The notes beneath the pieces are model-generated. The model saw nothing but the letters and a program-made list of their open reading frames with translations, had not been told where the DNA came from and searched no databases. Below, one piece after another: positions 4,587 to 25,438 of a DNA stretch of 32,000 bases. Origin of the DNA: an uncultured Bacilli bacterium (GTDB lineage: Bacteria; Bacillota_I; Bacilli_A; RF39; UBA660); NCBI GenBank assembly GCA_934086185.1, contig CAKOHW010000001.1:75966-107965 (forward strand), written 5' to 3'. The stretch's first letter is position 1. Every line of letters begins with the position of its first letter. A program made the translations under genes and the position numbers.

Positions 4587-4632
4587 AATAATTAACCCTT
4601 TCTAATTAAGTATTGGTTAATATATGAAAAAA

Positions 4633-5430
4633 TTATTCACTATTTTTTAAATTTTGTTTTACTATTTCAAATAGATAGTATATATATGGCATTTTATATT
4701 TGTTCATGTAATTGATAATACTTTCTATTTCATTTTTTTTCATTTCTTTATTATTCTTTTTAATTACATTAATAAATTCATTTAATTTTAATTTATTATC
4801 ATACATATGATATTTTTCTAAATAAATGTTTACATTGTCTATTATAAAGTTAGAAAATATTTCATTATTATTTTTTAAATAATATATTAGTAAATTACTA
4901 TCCCATCCTAATACTTGGTAGTATTCATATATATCAAATGGTTTATCATTTACTAAGTCATCACTTATTTTATCTACTACTTCTTTTACCTTATCTAAAT
5001 TTTCTTTATTAAATGTATTTTCTCTTTTTAAGAATTTTCTAAGAGTTGTTTTTTCTTCTTTTGATAAATAATAATGTTCAGTATTGTTTATAAATTTTAT
5101 AAAATTATTATAGTCAATATTATTTGTTTCTATATATTCTTTTATATTATGTTTATCTTCTTTTATGTAATTATTTATTATATTTAGTAGAATTTCTGCT
5201 TCTTTTCTTTTATTAATTTTTTTGTTTTCAGTTTTATTTTTGAATTTTAAGTTATATTCTAAATATAATTTATTAATTTTTTTACTATCTTTTAATTCAT
5301 TTAAATAATCATTAACTATTTCTTTATATTCATTTAAAGTAATATTTTCTTTTTTTATAAATTCTTCTAATTTTTTTAATTCTCCGTTAGATTCGATATA
5401 AAATTTTAAATACTCTTCTTTTTTACTCAT
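4633..5430 (-). CDS. hypothetical Lys/Asn/Glu-rich protein
   Basis: 265-aa ORF. Its ATG overlaps the era stop by 8 nt (gATGAGTAAaa), which suggests translational coupling. No recognisable motif and low-complexity composition. Confidence 0.45.
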   Translation of the reverse strand: MSKKEEYLKFYIESNGELKKLEEFIKKENITLNEYKEIVNDYLNELKDSKKINKLYLEYNLKFKNKTENKKINKRKEAEILLNIINNYIKEDKHNIKEYIETNNIDYNNFIKFINNTEHYYLSKEEKTTLRKFLKRENTFNKENLDKVKEVVDKISDDLVNDKPFDIYEYYQVLGWDSNLLIYYLKNNNEIFSNFIIDNVNIYLEKYHMYDNKLKLNEFINVIKKNNKEMKKNEIESIINYMNKYKMPYIYYLFEIVKQNLKNSE

Positions 5431-6304
5431 CTATAATACCAAATTCTTTTAAATATCTTTCTTTATCTCGCCAATTTTCAATTGTTTTAACATATAATTC
5501 TAAATAAACTTGTTTTCCTAATCTATTTTCTATATCTACTCTAGCACGAGAACCTATTTCTTTTAACATACTACCATGTTTACCGATTATTATTTTTTTA
5601 AGTGATGCTCTACTTACAATTATATCTACACTAATATTAACTATATTAGTTTTTTCTTGATATGATGTTGTAACACATGTTACTGAGTGTGGTACTTCAT
5701 CATTTGTTAGAGATAGTATTTTTTCTCTTACGAATTCGCTTGCTAAAAAATATTTACTAGCATTTGTTATTATTCCGTCATCGTAATATTTAACATTATC
5801 ATTTAAATATGTTTTTAATACTTTTATTAATCTATCTACATTATCATTTTTTAATGCTGATATTGGTATTATTTCTGCAAAGTCATATAAATCTTTATAT
5901 GTATTTATTGAAGACATTATTTGTTCATCGTTCATTTTATCAATTTTGTTTAAGATTAATATTACTGGAACTTCAATATTTTTTAATGCATTTATAATAA
6001 ATTTATCTCCTTTACCAAAGCCACTTGATGCATCTACTAAAAATAAAATAACATCTATATCATCTAAAGAGTTGTAAGCTTCTTTATTTAATTCTTTTCC
6101 TAGTTTATCTACTGGTTTATGTATTCCTGGGGTATCTACAAATACTATTTGAGTATCTTTATCGTTATATACTCCATGTATGGAATTTCTTGTTGTACCA
6201 GCAACATCACTAACTATTGCAATTTTATTATTTACTAATGTGTTTAATAATGTACTTTTACCAGTATTCGGTCTACCAATGATACTTACGAATCCACTTT
6301 TCAT
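5423..6304 (-). CDS. era: GTPase Era
   Basis: MKSGFVSIIGRPNTGKSTLLN (G1), DTPG (G3), NKID (G4), and a C-terminal KH domain (IIIGKHGSMLKEIG). The track ORF extends to 6349, but the ATG at 6304 has a ggag SD 8 nt upstream and gives the canonical Era N-terminus. Confidence 0.93.
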   Translation of the reverse strand: MKSGFVSIIGRPNTGKSTLLNTLVNNKIAIVSDVAGTTRNSIHGVYNDKDTQIVFVDTPGIHKPVDKLGKELNKEAYNSLDDIDVILFLVDASSGFGKGDKFIINALKNIEVPVILILNKIDKMNDEQIMSSINTYKDLYDFAEIIPISALKNDNVDRLIKVLKTYLNDNVKYYDDGIITNASKYFLASEFVREKILSLTNDEVPHSVTCVTTSYQEKTNIVNISVDIIVSRASLKKIIIGKHGSMLKEIGSRARVDIENRLGKQVYLELYVKTIENWRDKERYLKEFGIIDE

Positions 6305-7222: not shown

Positions 7223-7699
7223 TCAATTATTTAAATCTCTTTTTAATTTTTTACAGGTAATACTTATATCTCTTAAATTATCTTCGGTCTTTAAATTGGC
7301 CTTTGAATATTCTTGAATAGATTTTATATTTTTTAAAGTATTACCAAATTTATCTTTCATCCATTTTTGCGATGGCATTAGCCATACATGAAAGTGATAA
7401 TCACTTTTTTCTTCTTGTACTATATTGTAATTTTCACATATTCCATAACTTTTTAATAGTTTTAAAACTTTTGAAATTAATTTTATTAGTTTTAGTTGTT
7501 CTATTTCAGTTAAATCATTTATAGAAGAAATGTGCTTATTTGCTGAAATTATAATAAAGCCATTTATTGGTAATTCGAAATCTTGTGCTACATTAAATGT
7601 TTCATCTTTATATAAAATATTTATATTATTTTTTTCTAAGAAACAACCTAAACATCCATTTATTTCATAGTCTTTCCCATCATAACTAGTTATATTCAT
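7223..7699 (-). CDS. HIT-family (histidine triad-like) protein
   Basis: N-terminal C..C (GCLGCF) and a C-terminal triad-like YHFHVWLMP. The third His of the H.H.H motif is replaced by Trp. The start overlaps the ybeY stop by 4 nt (7696-7699). Confidence 0.65.
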   Translation of the reverse strand: MNITSYDGKDYEINGCLGCFLEKNNINILYKDETFNVAQDFELPINGFIIISANKHISSINDLTEIEQLKLIKLISKVLKLLKSYGICENYNIVQEEKSDYHFHVWLMPSQKWMKDKFGNTLKNIKSIQEYSKANLKTEDNLRDISITCKKLKRDLNN

Positions 7700-8139
7700 G
7701 ATAATATTCCTAACTCATTTAATATTTCTTTTTGTAAGCCAAACATCTCTTCTTCTTCTTTTTTTCCTAATGTATGATCATAACCAAGTAAATGTAATAT
7801 TCCATGTATAGTTAAAAAAGATAATTCTCTTTTTTCACTATGATTGTAGTCTTTAGATTGACTTATCATTTTTGGTATTGATATAAATATATCACCAAGT
7901 GAATTAATTACTGCATCTATATGTTTATTATCATTTAGAGCAAACGATAATACATCTGTAGTTCTATCTATTCCTCTATATTCTTTATTTAATTTATGCA
8001 TTTCTTCATCATCAATAAAAATAATATCAAATACACTATTATTTACATTCATCTTTTTTAATGTATAATCTATTACTTCGTTTAAATAATCATAATCTTT
8101 ATAACCATAGTTATCTATAATATCATATTCGTTATTCAT
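7696..8139 (-). CDS. ybeY: rRNA maturation endoribonuclease YbeY
   Basis: Signature HGILHLLGYDH zinc motif, ~147 aa, conserved neighbourhood with cdd/era. Confidence 0.9.
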   Translation of the reverse strand: MNNEYDIIDNYGYKDYDYLNEVIDYTLKKMNVNNSVFDIIFIDDEEMHKLNKEYRGIDRTTDVLSFALNDNKHIDAVINSLGDIFISIPKMISQSKDYNHSEKRELSFLTIHGILHLLGYDHTLGKKEEEEMFGLQKEILNELGILS

Positions 8140-8753
8140 AAAACCTCCAATATCCCATAATGTTCAAGTACTATAAATATTCCTAAAAGTATTATAATAA
8201 TCCAAATTATATTGAATATCCAATCTTTTTTTAAACATGGTGGTAATTTTTCTTTTATAATATCTAGTACTCTATAAGTTAAATATCCTAATGTACCACC
8301 TATTACATTTAAAATTATGTCATCTATATCAAAACTTCTACCTATAAACATTTGAATACATTCTATACTAGTTGAAGTAATAATTGTAATTAATATATTT
8401 AAAAGTATACTTTTATTTTTTAGAATAGTATTTATAAAGTAACCAAATGGAACAAATAATAGTACATTACCTATTACATTTTTATAAAATAATGGACTAG
8501 ATAAATTATATCTACTTATTTCTTTAAAAGGGATAAAGTTATTTGAAAATGATTCAAAGTCTGTACTTGTAACAAGTTCAAATAATAAAAACATATAAAG
8601 TACAAAGGCTAATGTAAATAAGTCTTTGTATAAAGTAAATTTTTTCTTATTAATTATTACATCTATTATTCTAATGGTACAAACTACTATTATAAATAAA
8701 AGTAGCATTGGCCAAATATCATTTAATACTACATTAACTTCAGTTGGTATCAT
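8136..8753 (-). CDS. VanZ-like membrane protein
   Basis: Multi-pass membrane protein containing NVLLFVPFGYF and DIDDIILNVIGGTLGY, both typical of VanZ-like family members as I recall them. Confidence 0.6.
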   Translation of the reverse strand: MIPTEVNVVLNDIWPMLLLFIIVVCTIRIIDVIINKKKFTLYKDLFTLAFVLYMFLLFELVTSTDFESFSNNFIPFKEISRYNLSSPLFYKNVIGNVLLFVPFGYFINTILKNKSILLNILITIITSTSIECIQMFIGRSFDIDDIILNVIGGTLGYLTYRVLDIIKEKLPPCLKKDWIFNIIWIIIILLGIFIVLEHYGILEVL

Positions 8754-8878: not shown

Positions 8879-10312
8879 TTACTCTTTAGTTTTCTTTAAG
8901 ACTACTACTCCTCTTTTTTTACAACTGTCTTTTCCTTCTGGGCACGTTTTTAATACTTCACATGATGGCCCAAAAGATTTAGATACTAGAGGGGTTACAT
9001 TTGAAGCTAATCTTACCATTTCTTTAACAATATTTCTTATTTCCCATTGTGCTTTATTGCATGTACGCATTCTGCTAATCCATTCTAATGCTCTAGCGTT
9101 TAATGTTGTTGATACATTTAAACAATTCCCAGATAAATAAAAATATACTAAGTCTTCATCTCGAACACCTTGTTCCTTAAAATAATCTACTAATATTTTG
9201 TTATTTTCAAATATTTCTTTGTATTTTAATTCATGGGTTTTCTTTATACTTTCTGGCATTACATAATTATTTAAATTATTTAAAGGACAAAAATCAGGTA
9301 TCATAAGTGATTGCATTCTATGTCTAGTTAAATGTGTTAATACTGCAAGTGATATAGGAAATTCAAACTTATACATTACACATTCTAATTCTCTTTGATC
9401 TTTTTTATTTATTATTGCATCCATAAGTTTATCTTTTATATCTTTATCTACTCTTATCAATTCATATAAAAGAATACTTGCTTCTTCATATGATATGTCA
9501 TATCTATTTTGTAAAGTGCTGACTAATACTTTAAAATCTCCATTTTCTGTATAGTCTAATAAAGTTACTTTATCTATACTTTCTTCGTTACCTTTTAATT
9601 CATTATTATTAACATATTTATCTACAAAAGATAAATTATCTTTATAATAATCTTTGTTTTCTTCTTTTTTAAATTCTTCACTTAAGTATGGAGCATATTC
9701 TAATATTTTATTTTTTAATTTTGTAGCAAATTCTTTAACTTCAGTTATATTACTGTTTTTTCCATATAATAAATCACAAGTCATACGAATTAGTTCGTGA
9801 GCATCACATCCCATAATAATATTGGAATGGTATGAATATGGCAAAATAAATCTAGCATCTTCTATTGGGATTCCTTCATCATTTAATTCTCCATATTTAT
9901 TAAATAAACTTTGCATGTAATTATTATAGATGTTTTTTAATTTTTCATTATTATGTAAAACATTACCATTTTTATCTTTAAAATCTGGTGTATAAAAACC
10001 TGCATTTCTAAAATCTACATTACGTCTTGATTTTATTGTAAATGATGTTAATCTATAACTAATTATAATTTGTTCTATTATAGGTGTAACATCTTCTATT
10101 GCAAAAACTAAATAATCATGTTCTAATATAGATTTATGACCAGAATTTAAAATAAGTTTTATTAACTTTAAATTTTTTTCATAATCATTTCTACTATTAT
10201 AAACCTCTGTTACTGTTCCGTTTGCTCTTGATAAATTACCTGCTGATGCAACTATTTTTACTCTATTTTCTACTTCATCTTTAGTAGAATTACCTAGCAT
10301 TAATACTTTCAT
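8879..10312 (-). CDS. thyX: tandem (fused double) ThyX-like FAD-dependent thymidylate synthase
   Basis: Two ThyX-like halves. The N-half has SILEHDYLVFAIEDVTPIIEQIIISYRLTSFTIKSRR (RHR degenerated to SYR, S....S.R retained) and EDARFILPY. The C-half has HLTRHRMQSL (RHR..S) and ARALEWISRMRTCNKAQWEIRN. It is about twice the normal ThyX length. Confidence 0.65.
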   Translation of the reverse strand: MKVLMLGNSTKDEVENRVKIVASAGNLSRANGTVTEVYNSRNDYEKNLKLIKLILNSGHKSILEHDYLVFAIEDVTPIIEQIIISYRLTSFTIKSRRNVDFRNAGFYTPDFKDKNGNVLHNNEKLKNIYNNYMQSLFNKYGELNDEGIPIEDARFILPYSYHSNIIMGCDAHELIRMTCDLLYGKNSNITEVKEFATKLKNKILEYAPYLSEEFKKEENKDYYKDNLSFVDKYVNNNELKGNEESIDKVTLLDYTENGDFKVLVSTLQNRYDISYEEASILLYELIRVDKDIKDKLMDAIINKKDQRELECVMYKFEFPISLAVLTHLTRHRMQSLMIPDFCPLNNLNNYVMPESIKKTHELKYKEIFENNKILVDYFKEQGVRDEDLVYFYLSGNCLNVSTTLNARALEWISRMRTCNKAQWEIRNIVKEMVRLASNVTPLVSKSFGPSCEVLKTCPEGKDSCKKRGVVVLKKTKE

Positions 10313-19754: not shown

Positions 19755-20888
19755 TTAGTAATTATACTTTCTCTCTAAATCTGTTTTTAAATTTGTATTA
19801 CTCATTTTTAAGTAACCTTTATAACTACCAGAACTTCTTAAATATTTTTCATAGTCATATAAATAAAGATTATCTAATTTTTTATTAATTCTTCTAATAG
19901 TTTTATTATTATACCTTATAAGCAATTTATTATTTTTATCAATTTTAAATACATAGCCTAAAAAACTAATGCCATTATTTAATTTATATATATTAGATTT
20001 AGCATTTGTAGATAGTTTTAATTCATTTATCTTTTTTTCTATTAATTTAAAATTTTCTTTTAATTTTTCTTTATCTGTATCTATAATTAATAAATCATCC
20101 ATATACCTAATATAATATTTATATTTTAATTCATCTTTAATAAAGTGATCTACATCATTTAAATAAAATATTGCTAGTATTTGACTTGTCATATTTCCTA
20201 TTGGTAAGCCTTTATTATATTCATATAATGGAATTTCATTAATTGTTTTTATTTTTTTAGTTTTTTCATTATCACTTATGTTTAGACTTTTTATATAATT
20301 TATTTTTTCTTTTTTTAGAAATTCTATTCTTTCATTAACATATTTTTCATTAGTAGAATTAATAATTATTTTTAATAGACTTAATGCTTTTTTATCTTTT
20401 ATATATTTTTTTATTTTTTTGAATATGATTTCGTGATCAATATTATAAAAGTATTTTTTTATATCAATTTTTAATATATATATATCTTTATTTAAATATT
20501 TTAATTTATTTATATATTCTATAAATTTTTTAAAAGCGTAACTACTTCCTTTATTAATTCTGGTTGCAACATTAGTATCAATTAATTTACTTTCAAGGCA
20601 TGGTAAAAGTATATATTTACTTACTAAGTGATTTACCAATTTATCAGGAATATTTTCACTCATTATTATTCTATATTTTGGATCTCTTATCATAAATATT
20701 CTATAATAACTAAATTTATACTCGCCTTTATAAAGTTTTGTTAAAATATTAAAAATGTTAGTGTTTAAATTCAATCTAAAATTATAAACTGCCTCTTTAT
20801 TTTTACAATTTCTTTTTATTTTATGAAACATATTTAAAGCATGTTCATAAACTAATATTTCATTATATATATTATCAATTCTTTTCAT
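19755..20888 (-). CDS. DGR-type reverse transcriptase
   Basis: RT motifs are RIIMSENIPDKLVNHLV, ILKIDIKKYFYNIDH, LPIGNMTSQILAIFYLN (the DGR-diagnostic IGxxxSQ in place of the group II intron motif) and YIRYMDDLLII (YMDD). There is no maturase or endonuclease domain. It lies next to the TR/VR pair. Confidence 0.9.
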   Translation of the reverse strand: MKRIDNIYNEILVYEHALNMFHKIKRNCKNKEAVYNFRLNLNTNIFNILTKLYKGEYKFSYYRIFMIRDPKYRIIMSENIPDKLVNHLVSKYILLPCLESKLIDTNVATRINKGSSYAFKKFIEYINKLKYLNKDIYILKIDIKKYFYNIDHEIIFKKIKKYIKDKKALSLLKIIINSTNEKYVNERIEFLKKEKINYIKSLNISDNEKTKKIKTINEIPLYEYNKGLPIGNMTSQILAIFYLNDVDHFIKDELKYKYYIRYMDDLLIIDTDKEKLKENFKLIEKKINELKLSTNAKSNIYKLNNGISFLGYVFKIDKNNKLLIRYNNKTIRRINKKLDNLYLYDYEKYLRSSGSYKGYLKMSNTNLKTDLERKYNY

Positions 20889-21222
20889 CTTTATAATCTA
20901 AACTATATATAATATTTCTAATTTCACCTAACATTTTTACGCATGATAAAAATCTTTTCTTTATTATTAATTTTTTTGTAAAAATCACTTCTAAATAAAA
21001 GTCTATCATCATAATATTTGATTTTATATCATTAATATATTTTTGTCTAATGTTTCCTTTATTAATACTAACTTTTGTAGTATTTTTTATCATTTCATAA
21101 TATTCGTCTATTATTTTTGTTCTTAATTGTTTTTCATTTTTAGGAAAAGATGGCACTATATATTGTTCAAAATATACTAGGAATGCTTTTTCTTTGCCTA
21201 ATACTATAAATTTATCATTCAT
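20875..21222 (-). CDS. avd: Avd-like accessory variability determinant (small helical bundle protein)
   Basis: 115 aa, basic, with a helical heptad-like pattern. It overlaps the RT start by 14 nt, the typical Avd position immediately 5' of the RT. The assignment rests on size, position and composition, not on a strong motif. Confidence 0.6.
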   Translation of the reverse strand: MNDKFIVLGKEKAFLVYFEQYIVPSFPKNEKQLRTKIIDEYYEMIKNTTKVSINKGNIRQKYINDIKSNIMMIDFYLEVIFTKKLIIKKRFLSCVKMLGEIRNIIYSLDYKDEKN

Positions 21223-21610
21223 ACTTCTCTCTTTCTATTCTTTGAATAGTATAGTAACAAATTTATAATAATTTTTGTCAAACTTTGTCGATAATATGCT
21301 TTTTTGCGTTTAAAAGATTAAAATTCGAATCATAATTAATGTATATTTGAATTTTCGACACAAAAATATGTATTTTTAGAATAATGTATATTAATAACTT
21401 TAAATCTACAAATTAAAAACTACGTCAAATAAAAAAGATTACAATTTATAATAAATGTCTTTTCACAATAATATTACTAGCACATTTATATTTTGTAATC
21501 TAATATTTAGGTTTTAGCCAAGGAATTTTGCTTGTTTCAGGTAGGCATCTCTCCAGCATAGCACATAAGTGTTATGAGATAGCCATTAAATATTTGAAAA
21601 TATTTCTTGA

Positions 21611-21735
21611 AATTGCGGGACGGGCACCAATGTTGTTGTCATTGTTGACGTTGTTGTTGTTCAAGTTGCCATCATTGTTCACGTTGAACGCGTTGTCGTT
21701 GTTGTTGTTGAAGTTGGAGCGAGACAAAGACCAAT
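21611..21735 (-). repeat. DGR template repeat (TR), non-coding
   Basis: 125 nt, collinear with 22461-22585 (offset 850). 106 positions are identical. All 19 mismatches are T on the plus strand here, meaning A on the minus (sense) strand. In the VR frame it reads WSLSRSNFNNNNDNAFNVNNDGNLNNNNVNNDNNIGARPAI, with 18 AAY codons. The 76-aa plus-strand ORF 21528-21758 over it is spurious. Confidence 0.92.
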
Positions 21736-21835: not shown

Positions 21836-22210
21836 TTATTCCATTATTATTTGTTGAATTGATTTTATCAAATTCAACATTTCGTCACTTTTCATAATAT
21901 CCAAATCTTTTGACAAGATTAATTCATTTATTTTTTTTAATTTTGTTTTTTCATCAATATTATCTGGGATGATAATTTTATAATCGATGCTTTTTTGTTT
22001 TAATAATTCTTCATATTTTGCTATTGAATTTTTTGGAAAACCACATTTATCACAAAAATTTGAAAATTTGGTTAATCTAAAATCAAACATTTCATTCAGT
22101 AATATTGCATCACTATCTAATGCAATATAAAAGTTTCCACATTCAAATAGATATATCGTTGTTTCATTTTTTTCTTTTAAACTTAAATACTTATCATATA
22201 TTTTACTCAT
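21836..22210 (-). CDS. stand-alone MutS domain I (mismatch-binding domain)-like protein, DGR accessory candidate
   Basis: IYDKYLSLKEKNETTIYLFECGNFYIALDSDAILLNEMFDFRLTKF...CGFPKNSIAKYEELLKQKSIDYKII is collinear with the MutS N-terminus as I recall it (M..QYL.lK......lLfFR.GDFYE.F..DA......L.I.LT.R....PM.G.P......Y...L...G..V.I). The Phe of the F-x-E mismatch wedge is kept (NFY) and the Glu is replaced by Ile. It is only 124 aa, with no connector, clamp or ATPase domains. Confidence 0.7.
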   Translation of the reverse strand: MSKIYDKYLSLKEKNETTIYLFECGNFYIALDSDAILLNEMFDFRLTKFSNFCDKCGFPKNSIAKYEELLKQKSIDYKIIIPDNIDEKTKLKKINELILSKDLDIMKSDEMLNLIKSIQQIIME

Positions 22211-22267: not shown

Positions 22268-22297
22268 ATTATATCACACTATCGTGCAATTTGTTAA
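22268..22297 (-). promoter_or_regulatory. candidate internal promoter for the MutS-like ORF/TR/avd/RT transcript
   Basis: Minus strand TTAACA-18 nt-TATAAT with a perfect extended -10 (TGaTATAAT, 22276-22268). It is embedded in a 10-bp AT inverted repeat (22261-22270 / 22288-22297). Confidence 0.4.
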
Positions 22298-22313: not shown

Positions 22314-22339
22314 GTCCTGTGGAAGGGTTTCCACAGGAC
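22314..22339. other. GC-containing 10-bp hairpin downstream of the DGR target gene
   Basis: gtcctgtgga-agggtt-tccacaggac. It is unusually GC-rich for this genome. The minus-strand side has no T-run, while the plus-strand side has tttt. Confidence 0.55.
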
Positions 22340-22365: not shown

Positions 22366-22383
22366 GTAGGACTAAAGTCCTAC
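22366..22383. other. 7-bp stem / 4-nt loop hairpin 2 nt after the target-gene stop
   Basis: gtaggac-taaa-gtcctac. It shares the gtcct/aggac core with the 22314-22339 hairpin. No T-run follows on the minus strand. Confidence 0.5.
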
Positions 22384-22385
22384 TA

Positions 22386-24260
22386 TTAACTCTCCGTTAC
22401 TTTATATGGATTTCCTATTGTTCCATCTCCACTTGCTATTTGTGCACCAGTGGCTAAAGTAACTGCGGGACGGGCACCAAAGTTGCTGTCATCGTAGACG
22501 CCGTCGTTGTTCAAGCTGCCATCATCGTTCACGCTGAACGCGAGGTCGTCGTAGTCGTCGAAGCGGGAGCGAGACAAAGACCAATAATATGATTGTGCAT
22601 TGTCATATAAATAATAGAATTTATTAGAATAACCAGCCTGTCCTCCTGCGTATGCTATTTCATCTGCTGTTAATGTTCCTATATAATCACTTATGCTGTC
22701 TTCTTCACTTGAACATTTTAATGTTGCGTTTCTTTCTACACCTTTTCCCCATAATCTTTTTCCTGCTGTGTAATAATAAGTTCCATAATCATTTTCTATC
22801 TGTGTTACTTCTGCGTCTGTTAATAACACTCCAGTTGATGAATTATATCTATAATTATCACTTCCACCTAAGCACCATTTTTCATTTTTTAATAATGATT
22901 TCTTATTTTCTAATCCACTTGATGTATACCATGCTTTTAATGTTGTATATAATCCTCCACTATAATTTTTATAATCTGCGTAATATTTGCTATTAATTGT
23001 TTTATAACCATATGCTATTGTTGCTCCATTATTTATTAAAGCTGATTTGGTATCTGATGATGTTATTGTACTACATAATCCTTCTTTGGCTAAGATTATT
23101 TTTATAGATCCATCGCCTTCAACACGTACTATTCTCCAACACATATTATTAAATTCTATGTAATTGTCTTTGACTCCACCTCTATAATAATAAGAGTCGC
23201 CATAATCATCAGTTGTTGCCGATAATGTTGCTTCTGTCGAATATGATACTGCTGACACTCTTTTTGCTTTCATTGTTATTGAACTTGTACTGCTTGCTGG
23301 TGCTGTTGTTACTTTATATATACTTGATAAATTTGTTGTTGTTTTTTGAGTATTTGTACTTGCTGAATTACTACTTGCACTTGTTGATACTATATATTTT
23401 CCTACCAATGTTGTATTACATGTTCCATCATTGTATTTACATGTTGTAACTCCTGTTAATGTGAATTTACCAGTACTTTCATCTATTGTATACCCTGTTC
23501 CATATGTCCAGTAATATCCTTGATATGTTGTTGTTATGCTTACTGAACTTTCGCTTGTTGCTTCATCTACTTGATCAGTATAATATTTATAACTTACTGC
23601 TTGTGCAGGTGTTGTTAATGGAGTTGCACTAAATGTTGTTCCATTTTTTGCTAATTTTGCATTGTTTATTATTGCATATGATAATGATGTTTGTTCATAT
23701 GGCATGAATTCTCCATTACTGTTTTTACCAAATATTTGTAATTTTGCTTGTAATACTTTTCCCATATCTACACTTTGATCTGTATTTGTATCTTTATATG
23801 TAAATTTAAATGTGTATGTATGAGTTTTTTTAGGTTCTATTTCATTTGTTATTAATTGTTTTATTCCATTTGGAAATGTTGTTTCTGTTGTTACTTCATT
23901 ACATGCTATTGTTCCATCTGTTGTGCAATTTAATGTATATTTAACATCATCTACTCTTTCAAATGTATTTATTACATCTATTAAATATACTCCATATTCT
24001 ACATTTGCATTTCCTTCGTTTTTTACTGTGAATGTTTTAGTATATACTGTATCACTTGGTAATAAGTTTTCTCCTCCAATTACTCCATCACTTCCATCGC
24101 CATATACTAATTTTAAATCTGCTGTTGTTACACTGATGCTCTTATCGTTAGTGTTTCCTTGTATTCTTGTTAAAAAGTATGCATATGTTAATCCTAACAA
24201 TGCTAATAATACTATTGTTATTCCTACTACACTAACTATGATTTTTTGTTTTCTATTCAT
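22386..24260 (-). CDS. secreted DGR target protein: SipW/TasA-type signal and N-domain, Thr/Ser-rich linker, C-terminal lectin-like VR domain
   Basis: The likely start is ATG 24260 (MNRKQK) with an aggagg SD; the track extends it to 24293. The signal region IVLLALLGLTYAYFLT resembles the SipW-dependent (TasA/camelysin-type) signal motif ..GTYAYF.. as I recall it. The middle holds S/T-rich tracts (STSASSNSASTNTQKTTTN, APASSTSS). At the C-terminus, ..LTADEIAYAGG...YYWSLS...GARPAV resembles the DUF1566/C-type-lectin-fold ends used by DGR targets. The VR is followed by a 24-aa tail (TLATGAQIASGDGTIGNPYKVTES). Confidence 0.85.
   Translation of the reverse strand: MNRKQKIIVSVVGITIVLLALLGLTYAYFLTRIQGNTNDKSISVTTADLKLVYGDGSDGVIGGENLLPSDTVYTKTFTVKNEGNANVEYGVYLIDVINTFERVDDVKYTLNCTTDGTIACNEVTTETTFPNGIKQLITNEIEPKKTHTYTFKFTYKDTNTDQSVDMGKVLQAKLQIFGKNSNGEFMPYEQTSLSYAIINNAKLAKNGTTFSATPLTTPAQAVSYKYYTDQVDEATSESSVSITTTYQGYYWTYGTGYTIDESTGKFTLTGVTTCKYNDGTCNTTLVGKYIVSTSASSNSASTNTQKTTTNLSSIYKVTTAPASSTSSITMKAKRVSAVSYSTEATLSATTDDYGDSYYYRGGVKDNYIEFNNMCWRIVRVEGDGSIKIILAKEGLCSTITSSDTKSALINNGATIAYGYKTINSKYYADYKNYSGGLYTTLKAWYTSSGLENKKSLLKNEKWCLGGSDNYRYNSSTGVLLTDAEVTQIENDYGTYYYTAGKRLWGKGVERNATLKCSSEEDSISDYIGTLTADEIAYAGGQAGYSNKFYYLYDNAQSYYWSLSRSRFDDYDDLAFSVNDDGSLNNDGVYDDSNFGARPAVTLATGAQIASGDGTIGNPYKVTES
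22461..22585 (-). repeat. DGR variable repeat (VR) inside the 3' end of the target gene
   Basis: Encodes WSLSRSRFDDYDDLAFSVNDDGSLNNDGVYDDSNFGARPAV. It differs from the TR only at TR-adenine positions: 13 A>G, 4 A>T and 2 A>C on the sense strand. The 3' end carries a GC-rich IMH-like tract, GGTGCCCGTCCCGC, identical in TR and VR. Homology stops abruptly at both ends. Confidence 0.92.
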
Positions 24261-24319
24261 ATTAACTCCTCCTAAAAAATAAAATACCAACAACTTCGTG
24301 TATTGTATTTTCTAAAATA

Positions 24320-24440: not shown

Positions 24441-24461
24441 AACCAACTACTTTGTTGTTTT
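24441..24461. promoter_or_regulatory. operator-like inverted repeat, copy 1 (downstream of XRE gene, upstream of DGR target promoter)
   Basis: aaccaacTactttgttgtttt differs at 1 of 21 nt from copy 2 at 24863-24883. A ttgataat box follows at the same 11-nt spacing. The 20/21 match sits inside a looser ~50-nt similarity block. Confidence 0.4.
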
Positions 24462-24589: not shown

Positions 24590-24805
24590 CTATCTTTGAC
24601 GATTAACTAGAAGTAAAGCTGGGTCTATTTTTAAACCTTTTGCAATTTTTTCTACTGTGTCAATTGTCACTTTTCTGTCAGTTCTTTCAATATCTCCAAT
24701 ATAGTTTGCACTCATCCCTGATAATTCGGCTAATCTTTCTTGAGAGATATTTAATTGTCTTCTATAATATTTCACATTTTCTTTAAATACTTGTCTTAAA
24801 GTCAT
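24590..24805 (-). CDS. XRE-family helix-turn-helix transcriptional regulator
   Basis: LNISQERLAELSGMSANYIGDIERTDRKVTIDTVEKIAKGLKIDPALLL is a classic Cro/C1-type HTH. The ATG at 24805 (MTLRQ) has GGAGG 10 nt upstream, whereas the track start at 24814 is too close to the SD. Confidence 0.8.
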   Translation of the reverse strand: MTLRQVFKENVKYYRRQLNISQERLAELSGMSANYIGDIERTDRKVTIDTVEKIAKGLKIDPALLLVNRQR

Positions 24806-24862
24806 TTTAACCATACCTCCATCTCATTAATATTATGGTATGATTTTTTTGAAATTATAACA

Positions 24863-24883
24863 ACCAACAACTTTGTTGTTTTC
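24863..24883. promoter_or_regulatory. operator-like inverted repeat, copy 2 (XRE / orphan-ORF divergent intergenic region)
   Basis: aaccaacAactttgttgtttt contains aacaac-ttt-gttgtt (6-bp arms). It is followed by an extended -10-like tTGaTAATAT (24892-24901) facing the plus-strand ORF at 24924. Confidence 0.4.
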
Positions 24884-25361: not shown

Positions 25362-25438
25362 TGGTGTCCTCGGAGCGACTCGAACGCTCGACCGTACGCT
25401 TAGAAGGCGTATGCTCTATCCAGCTGAGCTACGAAGAC
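25362..25438 (-). tRNA. tRNA-Arg (anticodon TCT), CCA encoded
   Basis: The reverse complement GTCTTCGTAGCTCAGCTGGATAGAGCATACGCCTTCTAAGCGTACGGTCGAGCGTTCGAGTCGCTCCGAGGACACCA folds as a cloverleaf. Acceptor stem GTCTTCG/CGAGGAC, D-arm GCTC/GAGC, anticodon stem TACGC/GCGTA with loop CTTCTAA, T-arm GAGCG-TTCGAGT-CGCTC. Confidence 0.95.

Follow-up and report, generated by a model that had tools for sequence, protein, structure and literature searches.

The two 125-nt repeats carried by the window (the whole 32,000-nt stretch of DNA analysed here) are almost certainly the TR and VR of a complete and currently active DGR in the chromosome of a human-gut Bacilli bacterium, judging by the organization of the locus and its natural variation. 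The host, an uncultured and spore-forming member of the gut Bacilli, has a G+C content of 22.8%. On the minus strand, the elements follow one another in the order target gene with its VR, gene for the MutS-like protein (MSL), TR, structured spacer RNA, avd and reverse transcriptase (RT), and the RT, avd, MSL and target ORFs are all intact (Table 1). A prophage setting was ruled out since the flanking genes are housekeeping genes (polC, spoIIP, yqfD, thyX, era, recO, rnhB, cvpA, and a thioredoxin gene).

Table 1. Features of the DGR locus, in order along the window.
Feature	Position	Strand	Description
DGR reverse transcriptase	19755..20888	-	377 aa; IGNMTSQ and YMDD motifs; RVT_1, phrog_1423, Brt alignment
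avd	20875..21222	-	115 aa; basic, pI 9.5; 3' end overlaps RT start by 14 nt
Intrinsic-terminator-like element	21427..21501	-	long hairpin, then T-run; several compensatory pairs
Structured spacer (Sp) RNA	21504..21616	-	abuts TR; covariation-supported fold
Conserved spacer tail	21504-21528	-	
Spacer helix P1	21606-21616 with 21530-21541	-	GCAAUUUCA (TR 3' flank) pairs with UGAAACAAGC; RNAalifold
Spacer hairpin P2	21544-21584	-	enclosed by P1
TR	21611..21735	-	43 adenines; identical in 10/10 recovered loci of this species
MSL	21836..22210	-	124 aa; MutS domain I only; pI 5.3; Pfam MutS_I E = 2.4e-11; NCBIfam MutS N-terminus
Promoter-like site	22268..22297	-	TTAACA-18-TATAAT, extended -10 TG; 11/12 consensus match
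Hairpin/cruciform candidate	22314..22339	-	11-bp stem, 4-nt loop ACCC; about 121 nt past repeat end, 46 nt past stop
Second hairpin	22366..22383	-	7-bp stem, loop TTTA; overlaps end of target stop-codon region
DGR target gene	22386..24260	-	624 aa; ATG with good RBS; VR near 3' end
VR	22461..22585	-	residues ~559-600 of the 624-aa target protein
IMH-like GC-rich tract	22465-22478	-	GGTGCCCGTCCCGC; same in TR and VR

The first-pass annotation had described the divergence between the two repeats as restricted to adenines, and a recount bears this out. TR and VR align without gaps at a constant offset of 850 and differ by 19 mismatches, at all of which (19/19) the plus-strand TR base is a T, that is, an A on the sense strand. 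On that strand the changes are 13 A>G, four A>T, and two A>C, and all of them fall among the 43 TR adenines; none of the 82 other positions is changed, leaving in the window no non-adenine mismatch of the kind that the annotation had named as evidence against its reading. The probability that 19 of 19 mismatches land on the 43 adenines by chance is 5.9e-11 (hypergeometric). In the VR frame, the TR contains 18 AAY codons, 14 of which are changed together with two ATT codons, and both the proposed figure of 16^18 variants for the AAY positions and the remark that NNY codons never become stops are correct. The TR adenines occupy codon position 1 in 20 cases, position 2 in 22, and position 3 in one. 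The VR lies inside a coding gene with the AAY bias expected of a DGR (42/43 adenines at codon positions 1/2). Outside the 125 nt, TR/VR homology drops to background on either side, as had been stated.

The diversified tract covers sense positions 21-105 (VR coordinates 22481-22565). One mismatch lies apart from it: at sense position 123 (VR plus-strand coordinate 22463), the TR has an A and the VR a G in 6/6 alleles. Because it is located 3' of the GC tract, this A>G is probably a fixed IMH/IMH* (TR/VR flank) difference rather than a product of mutagenesis, and since it is invariant among the VR alleles, 18 of the 19 mismatches remain as candidate mutagenesis events. Together with the adjacent RT and Avd, the VR at the 3' end of an ORF, and a TR that stays invariant across independent metagenomes in which the VR is hypervariable (see below), the pattern supports the view that the TR/VR pair was diversified by adenine-specific mutagenic retrohoming in a DGR.

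Relatives of the locus were gathered by exact-protein look-ups and by an RT-based scan. An identical RT protein is encoded on at least 21 metagenome contigs, and gut metagenomes contain at least six VR alleles for one invariant TR. Compared with this TR, the six alleles show 130 A>N changes, among them 50 A>T and 4 A>C, and two non-A changes, both synonymous. Between sense positions 21 and 105, 39 of the 40 adenine sites vary among the alleles, which include ±1-codon length variants and keep the reading frame in all cases. Apart from the VR, the strains with differing alleles share 99.7-100% identity over 6.5-10.5 kb. Between the window and one of these loci (L001), we counted 34 differences in 10.5 kb; 26 of them lie in the VR, each at a TR-adenine site, and the ~8.4 kb extending over MSL-TR-avd-RT-polC-spoIIP has no difference at all. 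Likewise, 16 target proteins grouped in one 90% cluster vary almost wholly in the VR. On a wider scale, 80 related loci were found in gut Bacilli MAGs, 79 with avd, 38 with MSL, and 35 with A-specific TR/VR pairs. When genome contigs and JGI metagenome contigs were scanned for exact copies of the TR/VR border patterns, no match came up.

Such data bear on whether the locus could be a fossil DGR, a cassette that diversified the VR in the past but has since ceased to work and left the TR/VR differences frozen. One window by itself cannot tell past from present activity, and decay does occur in this family, as one relative (L041) has a truncated RT and a spacer interrupted by 2.5 kb of inserted DNA. 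Here, however, the four ORFs are intact, the same TR is found in 10 loci next to six VR alleles among near-identical strains, and nearly every adenine site of the tract varies. The annotation had regarded identical VRs and degraded TRs in related strains as the mark of a fossil, and we observed the reverse, VRs that differ and TRs that are identical. We consider a fossil very unlikely; the DGR is evidently active, as indicated by the polymorphism between samples.

The same alleles speak to explanations that involve no retroelement, either ordinary mutation under strong diversifying selection or gene conversion and recombination with a silent TR cassette. Recombination does act on the target gene, since SNPs are clustered in its 5' 540 nt and homology breaks at the start codon. 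However, ordinary mutation is not expected to place 130 of 132 changes at the adenines of a second, non-coding copy 850 nt off, and gene conversion from the TR would bring AAC codons into the VR instead of replacing them. An A-to-I style deaminase would yield only A>G, at odds with the A>T and A>C changes seen. Moreover, a DGR RT and Avd adjoin the repeats. The substitution pattern effectively refutes this group of explanations, which we hold to be extremely improbable.

Finally, the repeat pair or its differences could arise from mis-assembly or faulty binning. Assemblers do struggle at this locus, since two Logan contigs stop 24 nt from the VR and one scaffold has an N-run in MSL. Against this, contigs as long as ~470 kb, produced by independent studies and assemblers, show the cassette with unchanged spacing, and the frame is kept in every allele, so that the probability of an artefact is practically negligible. 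The ends of the two Logan contigs (L003 and L004) are also compatible with VR heterogeneity within a sample; as the break point does not fall exactly on the first variable site, they were not counted as evidence.

The RT adjoining the repeats is of DGR type, as indicated by its motifs, its profile matches and its alignment to Brt of BPP-1. It matches RVT_1 (E = 3.9e-17) and phrog_1423 (E = 1e-72) and aligns with Brt over its full length (25% identity, E = 2e-36), PIGNMTSQ facing PIGSLTSQ and YMDD facing YMDD. The roles of Brt I181, G182, and Q187 have been described (10.1101/2023.10.23.563531). The window Avd matches NCBIfam NF033474 'DGR protein Avd' with E = 2.6e-6 and 27.7 bits, below the cut-off of 80; its search against Pfam and the PHROGs library gave no match, and a weak precomputed match to PF22296 (bAvd) is recorded. 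Among its homologues, 39 of 54 match PF22296 (best 7e-13), and the family profile weakly matches 4DWL and 8UB7 (E = 0.08-0.5). The assignment to Avd holds at the family level, the window sequence alone being sub-threshold.

At their sense-strand 3' end, both repeats carry a tract which the annotation had called GC-only and likened to the IMH. The IMH-like character and the 3' location stand; the tract is not GC-only since GGTGCCCGTCCCGC has 12 G+C out of 14. That its identity in TR and VR would set the locus apart from BPP-1 is wrong, as the (G/C)14 of BPP-1 is also the same in both repeats. None of the six VR alleles has a variable site beyond sense position 105, and 3' of the A/G difference at position 123 the TR and VR flanks are unrelated; the locus thus has an IMH-type element with a non-identical TR counterpart. 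In BPP-1, the IMH/IMH* differences likewise sit downstream of the GC tract. An extended IMH of the BPP-1 type, in which GC14 is followed by a 21-bp element that is still homologous in the TR (~75% similar, 5 mismatches), is absent from the window, where homology stops 4 nt past the tract. The extended BPP-1-type IMH is a feature of the prototype and is not common to all DGRs. Identical IMH/IMH* tracts are also known from other DGRs (Wu et al., PMC5758913).

The annotation had placed the discrimination between donor and recipient in the divergent 3' flanks, and the comparison of relatives supports this: the flank of the TR pairs with the spacer RNA in a helix that covaries, and only the VR has, further downstream, a hairpin whose loop is conserved. 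These two elements are the likely determinants of directionality.

On the TR side, a covariance model of the spacer (R1) gave 24 matches, all of them abutting TR 3' ends wherever a TR was detected, and the spacer is ~82% identical at the nucleotide level in relatives whose RTs are ~71% identical. In an alignment fitted to this model, itself built from six sequences of which three come from one locus, 95.9% of cells are paired compared with 36-53% in slid controls, compensatory changes occur at 17 of 23 pairs, and helix P1 covaries at its two variable pairs. The structure is seen only by comparison, single-sequence folding of the TR region being no better than that of shuffles (z = -0.02). No Rfam family covers the TR/spacer region, and the sole Rfam match in the window is a tRNA. 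A search for a conserved segment upstream of the TR, as a candidate 'cPRT stop' duplex partner, showed that BLAST conservation begins only at the TR itself. [quoted passage not shown] The promoter-like site upstream of MSL, a consensus match, probably marks where the MSL-TR-spacer transcript (the DGR RNA) begins, and the hairpin with its T-run would form its terminator-like end.

On the VR side, the intergenic DNA around the ACCC-loop hairpin has a marked folding propensity (z = -9.8). Hairpins of the same class, in which the stem varies and the loop is conserved, follow 15 of 36 VRs and none of 36 TRs, the background rate being 0.8% per 200 nt; the loop classes were picked after the data were seen. 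The locus thus has an inverted repeat downstream of the VR that is missing after the TR, at a distance (81-121 nt here) and with a loop unlike those of phage DGRs of shown function (4-34 bp, GRNA). For the 7-bp TTTA hairpin, conservation was not found in the family survey.

MSL is recognised as a DGR accessory factor, though an uncharacterised one. Wu et al. (2018, PMC5758913) defined MSL proteins as MutS domain I homologues of 112-283 aa that always occur with avd, and the window protein agrees with this definition by its length, its MutS_I match and the avd of its cassette; its pI falls at the acidic end of the published 7.2 ± 1.7. A PHROGs library search gave no match. The family profile aligns with residues 13-85 of E. 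coli MutS. As in canonical MutS, MSL has a GxFY segment, whose mismatch-stacking Phe (F27) is conserved in 90% or more of 36 sequences, followed by a G-[FIV]-P turn. At the Glu position of Phe-X-Glu, the residue varies across the family and is an Ile in the window, leaving the motif incomplete, and no further MutS domains were found: the connector, core, clamp, and ATPase domains of canonical MutS are all missing. Judged by this domain content, MSL cannot by itself be a repair enzyme. An apparent MSL truncation in locus L005, considered as a natural knockout, was rejected since it results from the N-run in the scaffold. In Bacteroides, the host MutS cuts DGR output 5-10-fold (10.1101/2024.11.15.621889). 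Our best guess, purely inferential, is that MSL could bind the densely mismatched cDNA:VR heteroduplex and limit its reversal by host MutS. The order VR-MSL-TR-avd-RT is shared by the window with only two (L008 and L009) of 35 surveyed relatives having a TR/VR pair; the commoner MSL arrangement among them is VR-TR-msl-avd-RT.

The target protein begins with a TM/signal helix, continues with a beta-sandwich domain and a linker rich in Ser and Thr, and ends in a domain of ~300 aa of ligand-binding type, which carries the VR. AlphaFold modelled the protein with a pLDDT of 83 over its full length and 93.5 for the C-terminal 304 aa. In the model, the fold of the C-terminal domain best resembles DUF6273-type phage proteins and also matches a domain of the IgA peptidase of T. 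ramosa (9qa6, E = 5e-5). A C-type lectin fold was considered for the variable domain and is not clearly supported, the C-type lectins in the fold search all having E > 1 and aligning over ~35 residues. The variable domain has no Pfam match, the target has no match in the PHROGs library, and its N-terminus has a borderline match to Peptidase_M73/camelysin. The target would be a secreted or membrane-anchored surface protein whose VR lies in a C-terminal binding surface, of which up to ~1e24 DNA variants, or ~4e23 protein variants, could be reached.

Diversification could proceed as follows. A single transcript would extend over MSL, TR and the ~180-nt spacer, between the predicted promoter and terminator. 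In this RNA, the spacer fold would pair the TR 3' flank with a downstream segment, the fold being supported by covariation and its function suggested by analogy with BPP-1. RT-Avd would then cis-prime cDNA synthesis at a putative site inside the GC tract and miscopy opposite TR adenines, an adenine specificity that the substitution pattern makes plain. The cDNA would replace the VR as far as the GC tract, as the limits of allele variation indirectly indicate. Only the VR would serve as recipient, being devoid of the RNA-forming flank and followed by the ACCC-loop hairpin, to which we attribute a presumptive role.

More speculatively, two readings that we consider rather unlikely take the distal hairpin as the element by which the recipient site is recognized and MSL as an anti-mismatch-repair factor. 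The hairpin may act through a 10-13 bp stem with a sequence-specific ACCC or CTCY loop about 80-120 nt past the VR, and may amount to the BPP-1 cruciform rule with another loop code and spacing. MSL, with its stacking Phe kept and the catalytically coupled Glu lost, may shield new alleles from the 'all-or-nothing' reversal by host MutS described in Bacteroides (10.1101/2024.11.15.621889). If both were true, the locus would be a natural system in which to study how DGRs escape repair and select a target. It offers in any case a clean, intact and evidently active chromosomal DGR with a natural allele series across people, useful as a reference for the poorly understood MSL accessory factor, for the extent of the BPP-1 RNA-priming and target-hairpin rules in Firmicutes DGRs, and for the kinds of surface proteins that gut Bacilli diversify.

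The locus is real, correctly classified and explained by known biology. It resembles the prototype, the BPP-1 DGR (mtd-avd-TR-brt), in the adenine-specific transfer from TR to VR, in the location of the VR at the 3' end of the target ORF, in the GC-rich tract that is the same in TR and VR and bounds mutagenesis 3', in an IGxxxSQ/YMDD RT with an Avd partner, and in an inverted repeat with a 4-nt loop present downstream of the VR only; the pairing of the BPP-1 TR 3' flank with spacer RNA is predicted here as well. The BPP-1 DGR is phage-borne whereas that of the window is chromosomal, with avd between spacer and RT and with MSL upstream of the TR. The BPP-1 hairpin, with its GRNA loop, lies ~25 nt past the GC tract, and that of the window about 121 nt away, with an ACCC loop and an AT-richer 11-bp stem. 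The variable domain of Mtd has a C-type lectin fold, while that of the window resembles DUF6273 proteins. The combination of a small MutS-domain-I protein with avd is that of Architecture D DGRs (Wu et al. 2018, PMC5758913) and of the Bacteroides Bfr, Bth and Bun DGRs with Msl (10.1101/2024.11.15.621889), and one-codon in-frame VR indels beside AAC runs, seen here, are also reported by Wu et al. for some lineages (PMC5758913). The host differs, being an uncultured low-GC gut Bacilli lineage. MSL genes, in-frame indels and IMH tracts shared by TR and VR have each been published before, and the locus adds no new principle to these systems.

We realigned the template repeat (TR) and the variable region (VR) of the diversity-generating retroelement (DGR) and observed 19 mismatches at an offset of 850 throughout and no gaps, as the first-pass annotation had stated. 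All of them are a T in the plus-strand TR, corresponding to A on the sense (minus) strand, and from TR to VR they comprise 13 A>G, 4 A>T and 2 A>C changes. The TR contains 43 adenines, and a recount of its remaining 82 positions gave no difference; 19 random mismatches would all land on these adenines with a probability of 5.9e-11. With the TR read in the frame of the VR-bearing ORF on the minus strand, 42 of its 43 adenines occupy codon positions 1 or 2, 14 of the 18 AAY codons are changed in the VR, and two ATT codons are changed as well; the codon counts previously proposed, and the number of DNA variants calculated from them, were thus correct. Identity between the two repeats drops to background level in the 60 bases flanking each side, confirming the sharp homology borders. 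The repeats form local GC islands (VR 57% G+C, TR 45%), the reverse transcriptase (RT) gene having 16.7% G+C.

Features of the DGR cassette and its surroundings, with the modelled parts of the target protein
Feature	Position	Strand	Remarks
ThyX homologue	8879-10312		477 aa, two Thy1 stretches, ~2x usual length; unrelated to the DGR
RT ORF, 377 aa	19755-20888	minus	RVT_1; phrog_1423 at 1e-72
Insertion in RT relative to Brt	20220-20360 (residues ~176-220)		Lys-rich, ~38 aa, directly before IGxxxSQ
avd ORF, 115 aa	20875-21222	minus	basic, pI 9.5
Non-coding stretch, 388 nt	between TR and 115-aa ORF	minus	
Pairing partner of TR 3' flank, UGAAACAAGC	21530-21541		RNAalifold prediction
TR 3' flank, GCAAUUUCA	21606-21616		RNAalifold prediction
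TR	21611-21735	minus	after MSL ORF in cassette order
MSL ORF, 124 aa	21836-22210	minus	MutS domain I, Pfam E = 2.4e-11
Three hairpins and strong promoter-like site	between target ORF and MSL ORF	minus	sequence prediction
Hairpin after VR	22314-22339		11-bp stem, loop ACCC
VR	22461-22585	minus	
Target ORF, 624 aa	22386-24260	minus	VR near C-terminus
Palindromic motif CAACAAAGTTGTTG (sense strand)	24286-24299, 24442-24455, 24863-24876		three copies in 600 nt
Xre-type HTH gene	24590-24814	minus	
tRNA-Arg(TCT)	25362-25438	minus	~1.1 kb upstream of target gene
Target, TM/signal helix	residues 3-31		AlphaFold model
Target, beta-sandwich	residues 43-180		AlphaFold model; borderline Pfam camelysin/TasA-family match
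Target, Ser/Thr-rich linker	after beta-sandwich		AlphaFold model; disordered
Target, C-terminal domain, 300 aa			AlphaFold model, pLDDT 93.5; VR folds as beta-hairpins

The exact RT protein is present on at least 21 metagenome contigs, the samples being human gut metagenomes, many from Hadza cohorts, and the 90% cluster of the target protein holds 16 sequences, which vary mainly in the VR. Ten loci recovered at the DNA level share one TR sequence and carry among them six distinct VR alleles, over which we counted 130 A>N substitutions (76 G, 50 T and 4 C) and two changes outside TR adenines, both synonymous; 39 of the 40 adenine sites within sense positions 21-105 vary. Between the window and L001, another metagenome locus, 34 positions differ in 10.5 kb, 26 of them inside the 125-nt VR, every one at a TR-adenine site, and 8 in the 5' part of the target gene, while no difference was found over ~8.4 kb covering the genes for the MutS-like accessory protein (MSL) and the accessory variability determinant (Avd), the TR, RT, polC and spoIIP. 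A fossil element, which the first-pass annotation had proposed to recognize by identical VRs and degraded TRs in related strains, is therefore rejected, since the TR is invariant and the VR polymorphism between strains is almost entirely restricted to adenines. Judged from these comparisons, the DGR is intact and active. Two VRs differ in length from the unchanged 125-nt TR (L006, 9676-9803, 128 nt; L007, 9676-9797, 122 nt), their one-codon indels being placed in an (AAC)4 run; such indels were described by Wu et al. 2018 and blamed on RT slippage (PMC5758913), with which ours are consistent.

Some neighboring observations concern the assemblies and the lineage. Two independent Logan contigs (L003 and L004) both end at window position 22437, 24 nt from the VR 3' edge, which would be compatible with assemblies breaking at a mixed population of VRs and is not proof of it. 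Homology between the window and L001 starts exactly at the start codon of the target gene, upstream of which L001 (1-2628) has infB and the window has the HTH gene and tRNA-Arg, and the non-VR SNPs between strains all cluster at the 5' end of the target gene, within ~540 nt (23721-24260). This pattern points to recombination at the break or to alternative promoters, or possibly to a chimeric scaffold. The lineage also includes a decaying DGR (L041), in which a ~2.5-kb insertion splits the spacer (4619-4840 and 7408-7488) and the RT ORF is truncated (7992-8576).

Of the 19 mismatches, 18 remain candidates for mutagenesis. At sense position 123, the site of one A>G change, 6/6 VR alleles have G, A122 is invariant in all six, and both positions are 3' of the GC-rich tract GGTGCCCGTCCCGC; position 123 thus most likely marks a constant difference between the flanks and not a mutagenesis event. 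The first-pass annotation had set the identical GC tract of TR and VR against that of BPP-1, the Bordetella phage with the prototype DGR. We aligned the annotated BPP-1 repeats (AY029185) and found its (G/C)14 equally identical in both copies, so that this contrast was mistaken. The five differences between its VR and TR 3' elements (IMH and IMH*) lie within the 21 bp directly after the (G/C)14, whereas TR/VR homology in the window ends 4 nt past the tract. Identical IMH/IMH* tracts were reported in other DGRs by Wu et al., discrimination then being necessarily downstream (PMC5758913). Related loci resemble the window in this respect: where TR/VR pairs could be detected (35 loci), a GC-rich tract coding for G-x-R-P typically closes the repeats, and the flanks beyond it are unrelated.

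The placing of donor/recipient discrimination in these divergent 3' flanks is supported by two predicted distinctions, a TR flank lying within a conserved RNA and a hairpin after the VR only. The TR and ~180 nt downstream retain ~82% identity in relatives with an RT identity of only ~71%. RNAalifold pairs the TR 3' flank with a spacer segment, enclosing an internal hairpin, and a terminator stem with compensatory changes follows this helix. A search of 81 sources with a covariance model of the 113-nt core gave 24 matches. Every one is on the RT strand and, in loci with a detected TR, directly adjoins the 3' end of a TR. In the alignment fitted to this model, paired cells reach 95.9% versus 36-53% in slid controls, compensatory changes occur in 17 of 23 pairs, and both variable pairs of the TR-flank helix covary. 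In BPP-1, TR 118-129 pairs with positions 47-56 of the spacer RNA (Sp), with Sp A56 priming a cDNA whose synthesis begins at TR G117, within the GC tract (PMC6182149; 10.1101/2023.10.23.563531). The TR-flank/spacer helix is a positional analogue of this pairing, and its position predicts that cDNA initiation would occur inside the GC tract, in agreement with zero variation 3' of the tract. In one related MAG locus (L009, RT 71% identical), three tandemly spaced copies of TR and spacer RNA lie between MSL and avd (5414-5687, 5837-6131 and 7251-7540), all three strong matches to the covariance model; multiple TRs per cassette are unusual.

On the recipient side, hairpins with a 10-13 bp stem and an ACCC, CTCT or CTCC loop, a loop set picked after data inspection, follow 15 of 36 VRs at 81-121 nt and none of 36 TRs (background 0.8% per 200 nt), their stems being unrelated in sequence among loci. 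Both loop and distance differ from the BPP-1 target cruciform, for which Guo et al. gave the rule 'stem structure, loop sequence', with a GRNA loop at 4-34 bp (PMC3240598).

The neighboring genes (polC, spoIIP, yqfD, thyX, era, recO, rnhB, cvpA and thioredoxin) and the 22.8% G+C of the window indicate that the DGR is chromosomal, in a low-GC spore-former, and rule out a prophage location. Its RT, whose ORF overlaps that of avd by 14 nt, aligns end to end with the BPP-1 RT (Brt) at 25% identity (E = 2e-36), with PIGNMTSQ opposite PIGSLTSQ and YMDD opposite YMDD. Profile searches identify the product of the 115-aa ORF as a divergent Avd: it matches NCBIfam 'DGR protein Avd' at E = 2.6e-6, under the curated cut-off, and has a weak precomputed bAvd match. 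Pfam bAvd is matched by 39 of 54 homologues from related loci, and the family profile weakly matches the Avd structures 4DWL and 8UB7.

MutS-like genes were found in 16 of 372 DGRs by Wu et al., always with avd, MutS_I being in a few cases a C-terminal extension of the RT (PMC5758913), and Msl is also encoded in Bacteroides DGRs (10.1101/2024.11.15.621889). Of the 80 loci sampled in this RT family, 38 have MSL. Two relatives carry the MutS-like domain as a fusion to the RT C-terminus (L016, 2349-3869; L030, 1402-2877), matching the extensions of Wu et al., and a third, L038 (9131-9547), encodes it in a gene of its own downstream of the RT. An apparent 85-aa truncated MSL in L005 (~1730-1740) reflects 10 consecutive N in the scaffold and no real frameshift. 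The MSL family profile aligns to residues 13-85 of E. coli MutS; the mismatch-stacking Phe is nearly invariant, and the Glu of Phe-X-Glu is not conserved. Since deletion of mutS in the B. ovatus host raises DGR output 5-10-fold (10.1101/2024.11.15.621889), we suggest by inference that MSL may shield the mismatched heteroduplex.

The target, whose AlphaFold models were built on 76-104 homologues, is probably a binding protein that is secreted or displayed at the surface. The best structural matches of its C-terminal domain are DUF6273 phage proteins and a Thomasclavelia ramosa IgA peptidase domain (E = 5e-5), C-type lectins giving faint partial matches only. Upstream, one copy of CAACAAAGTTGTTG lies over the HTH gene promoter, one is intergenic, and the third stands between the promoter-like site and the RBS of the target gene. 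At two mismatches or fewer, the window contains 4 matches versus 0.32 expected, and 0 of 100 shuffles reach 4. This palindrome is a candidate operator that might tie the HTH regulator to target expression.

Taken together, the DGR interpretation of the first-pass annotation is essentially right, the corrections being position 123 and the BPP-1 contrast. Adenine mutagenesis, AAY bias, an IMH-like tract and Avd and MSL accessories are already established DGR biology, as are AAC-adjacent in-frame indels and a downstream inverted repeat. To these, our analysis makes modest additions: a natural VR allele series, a covarying TR-flank/spacer helix in a Firmicutes DGR family, and a predicted distal target hairpin whose loop consensus is unlike that of BPP-1.
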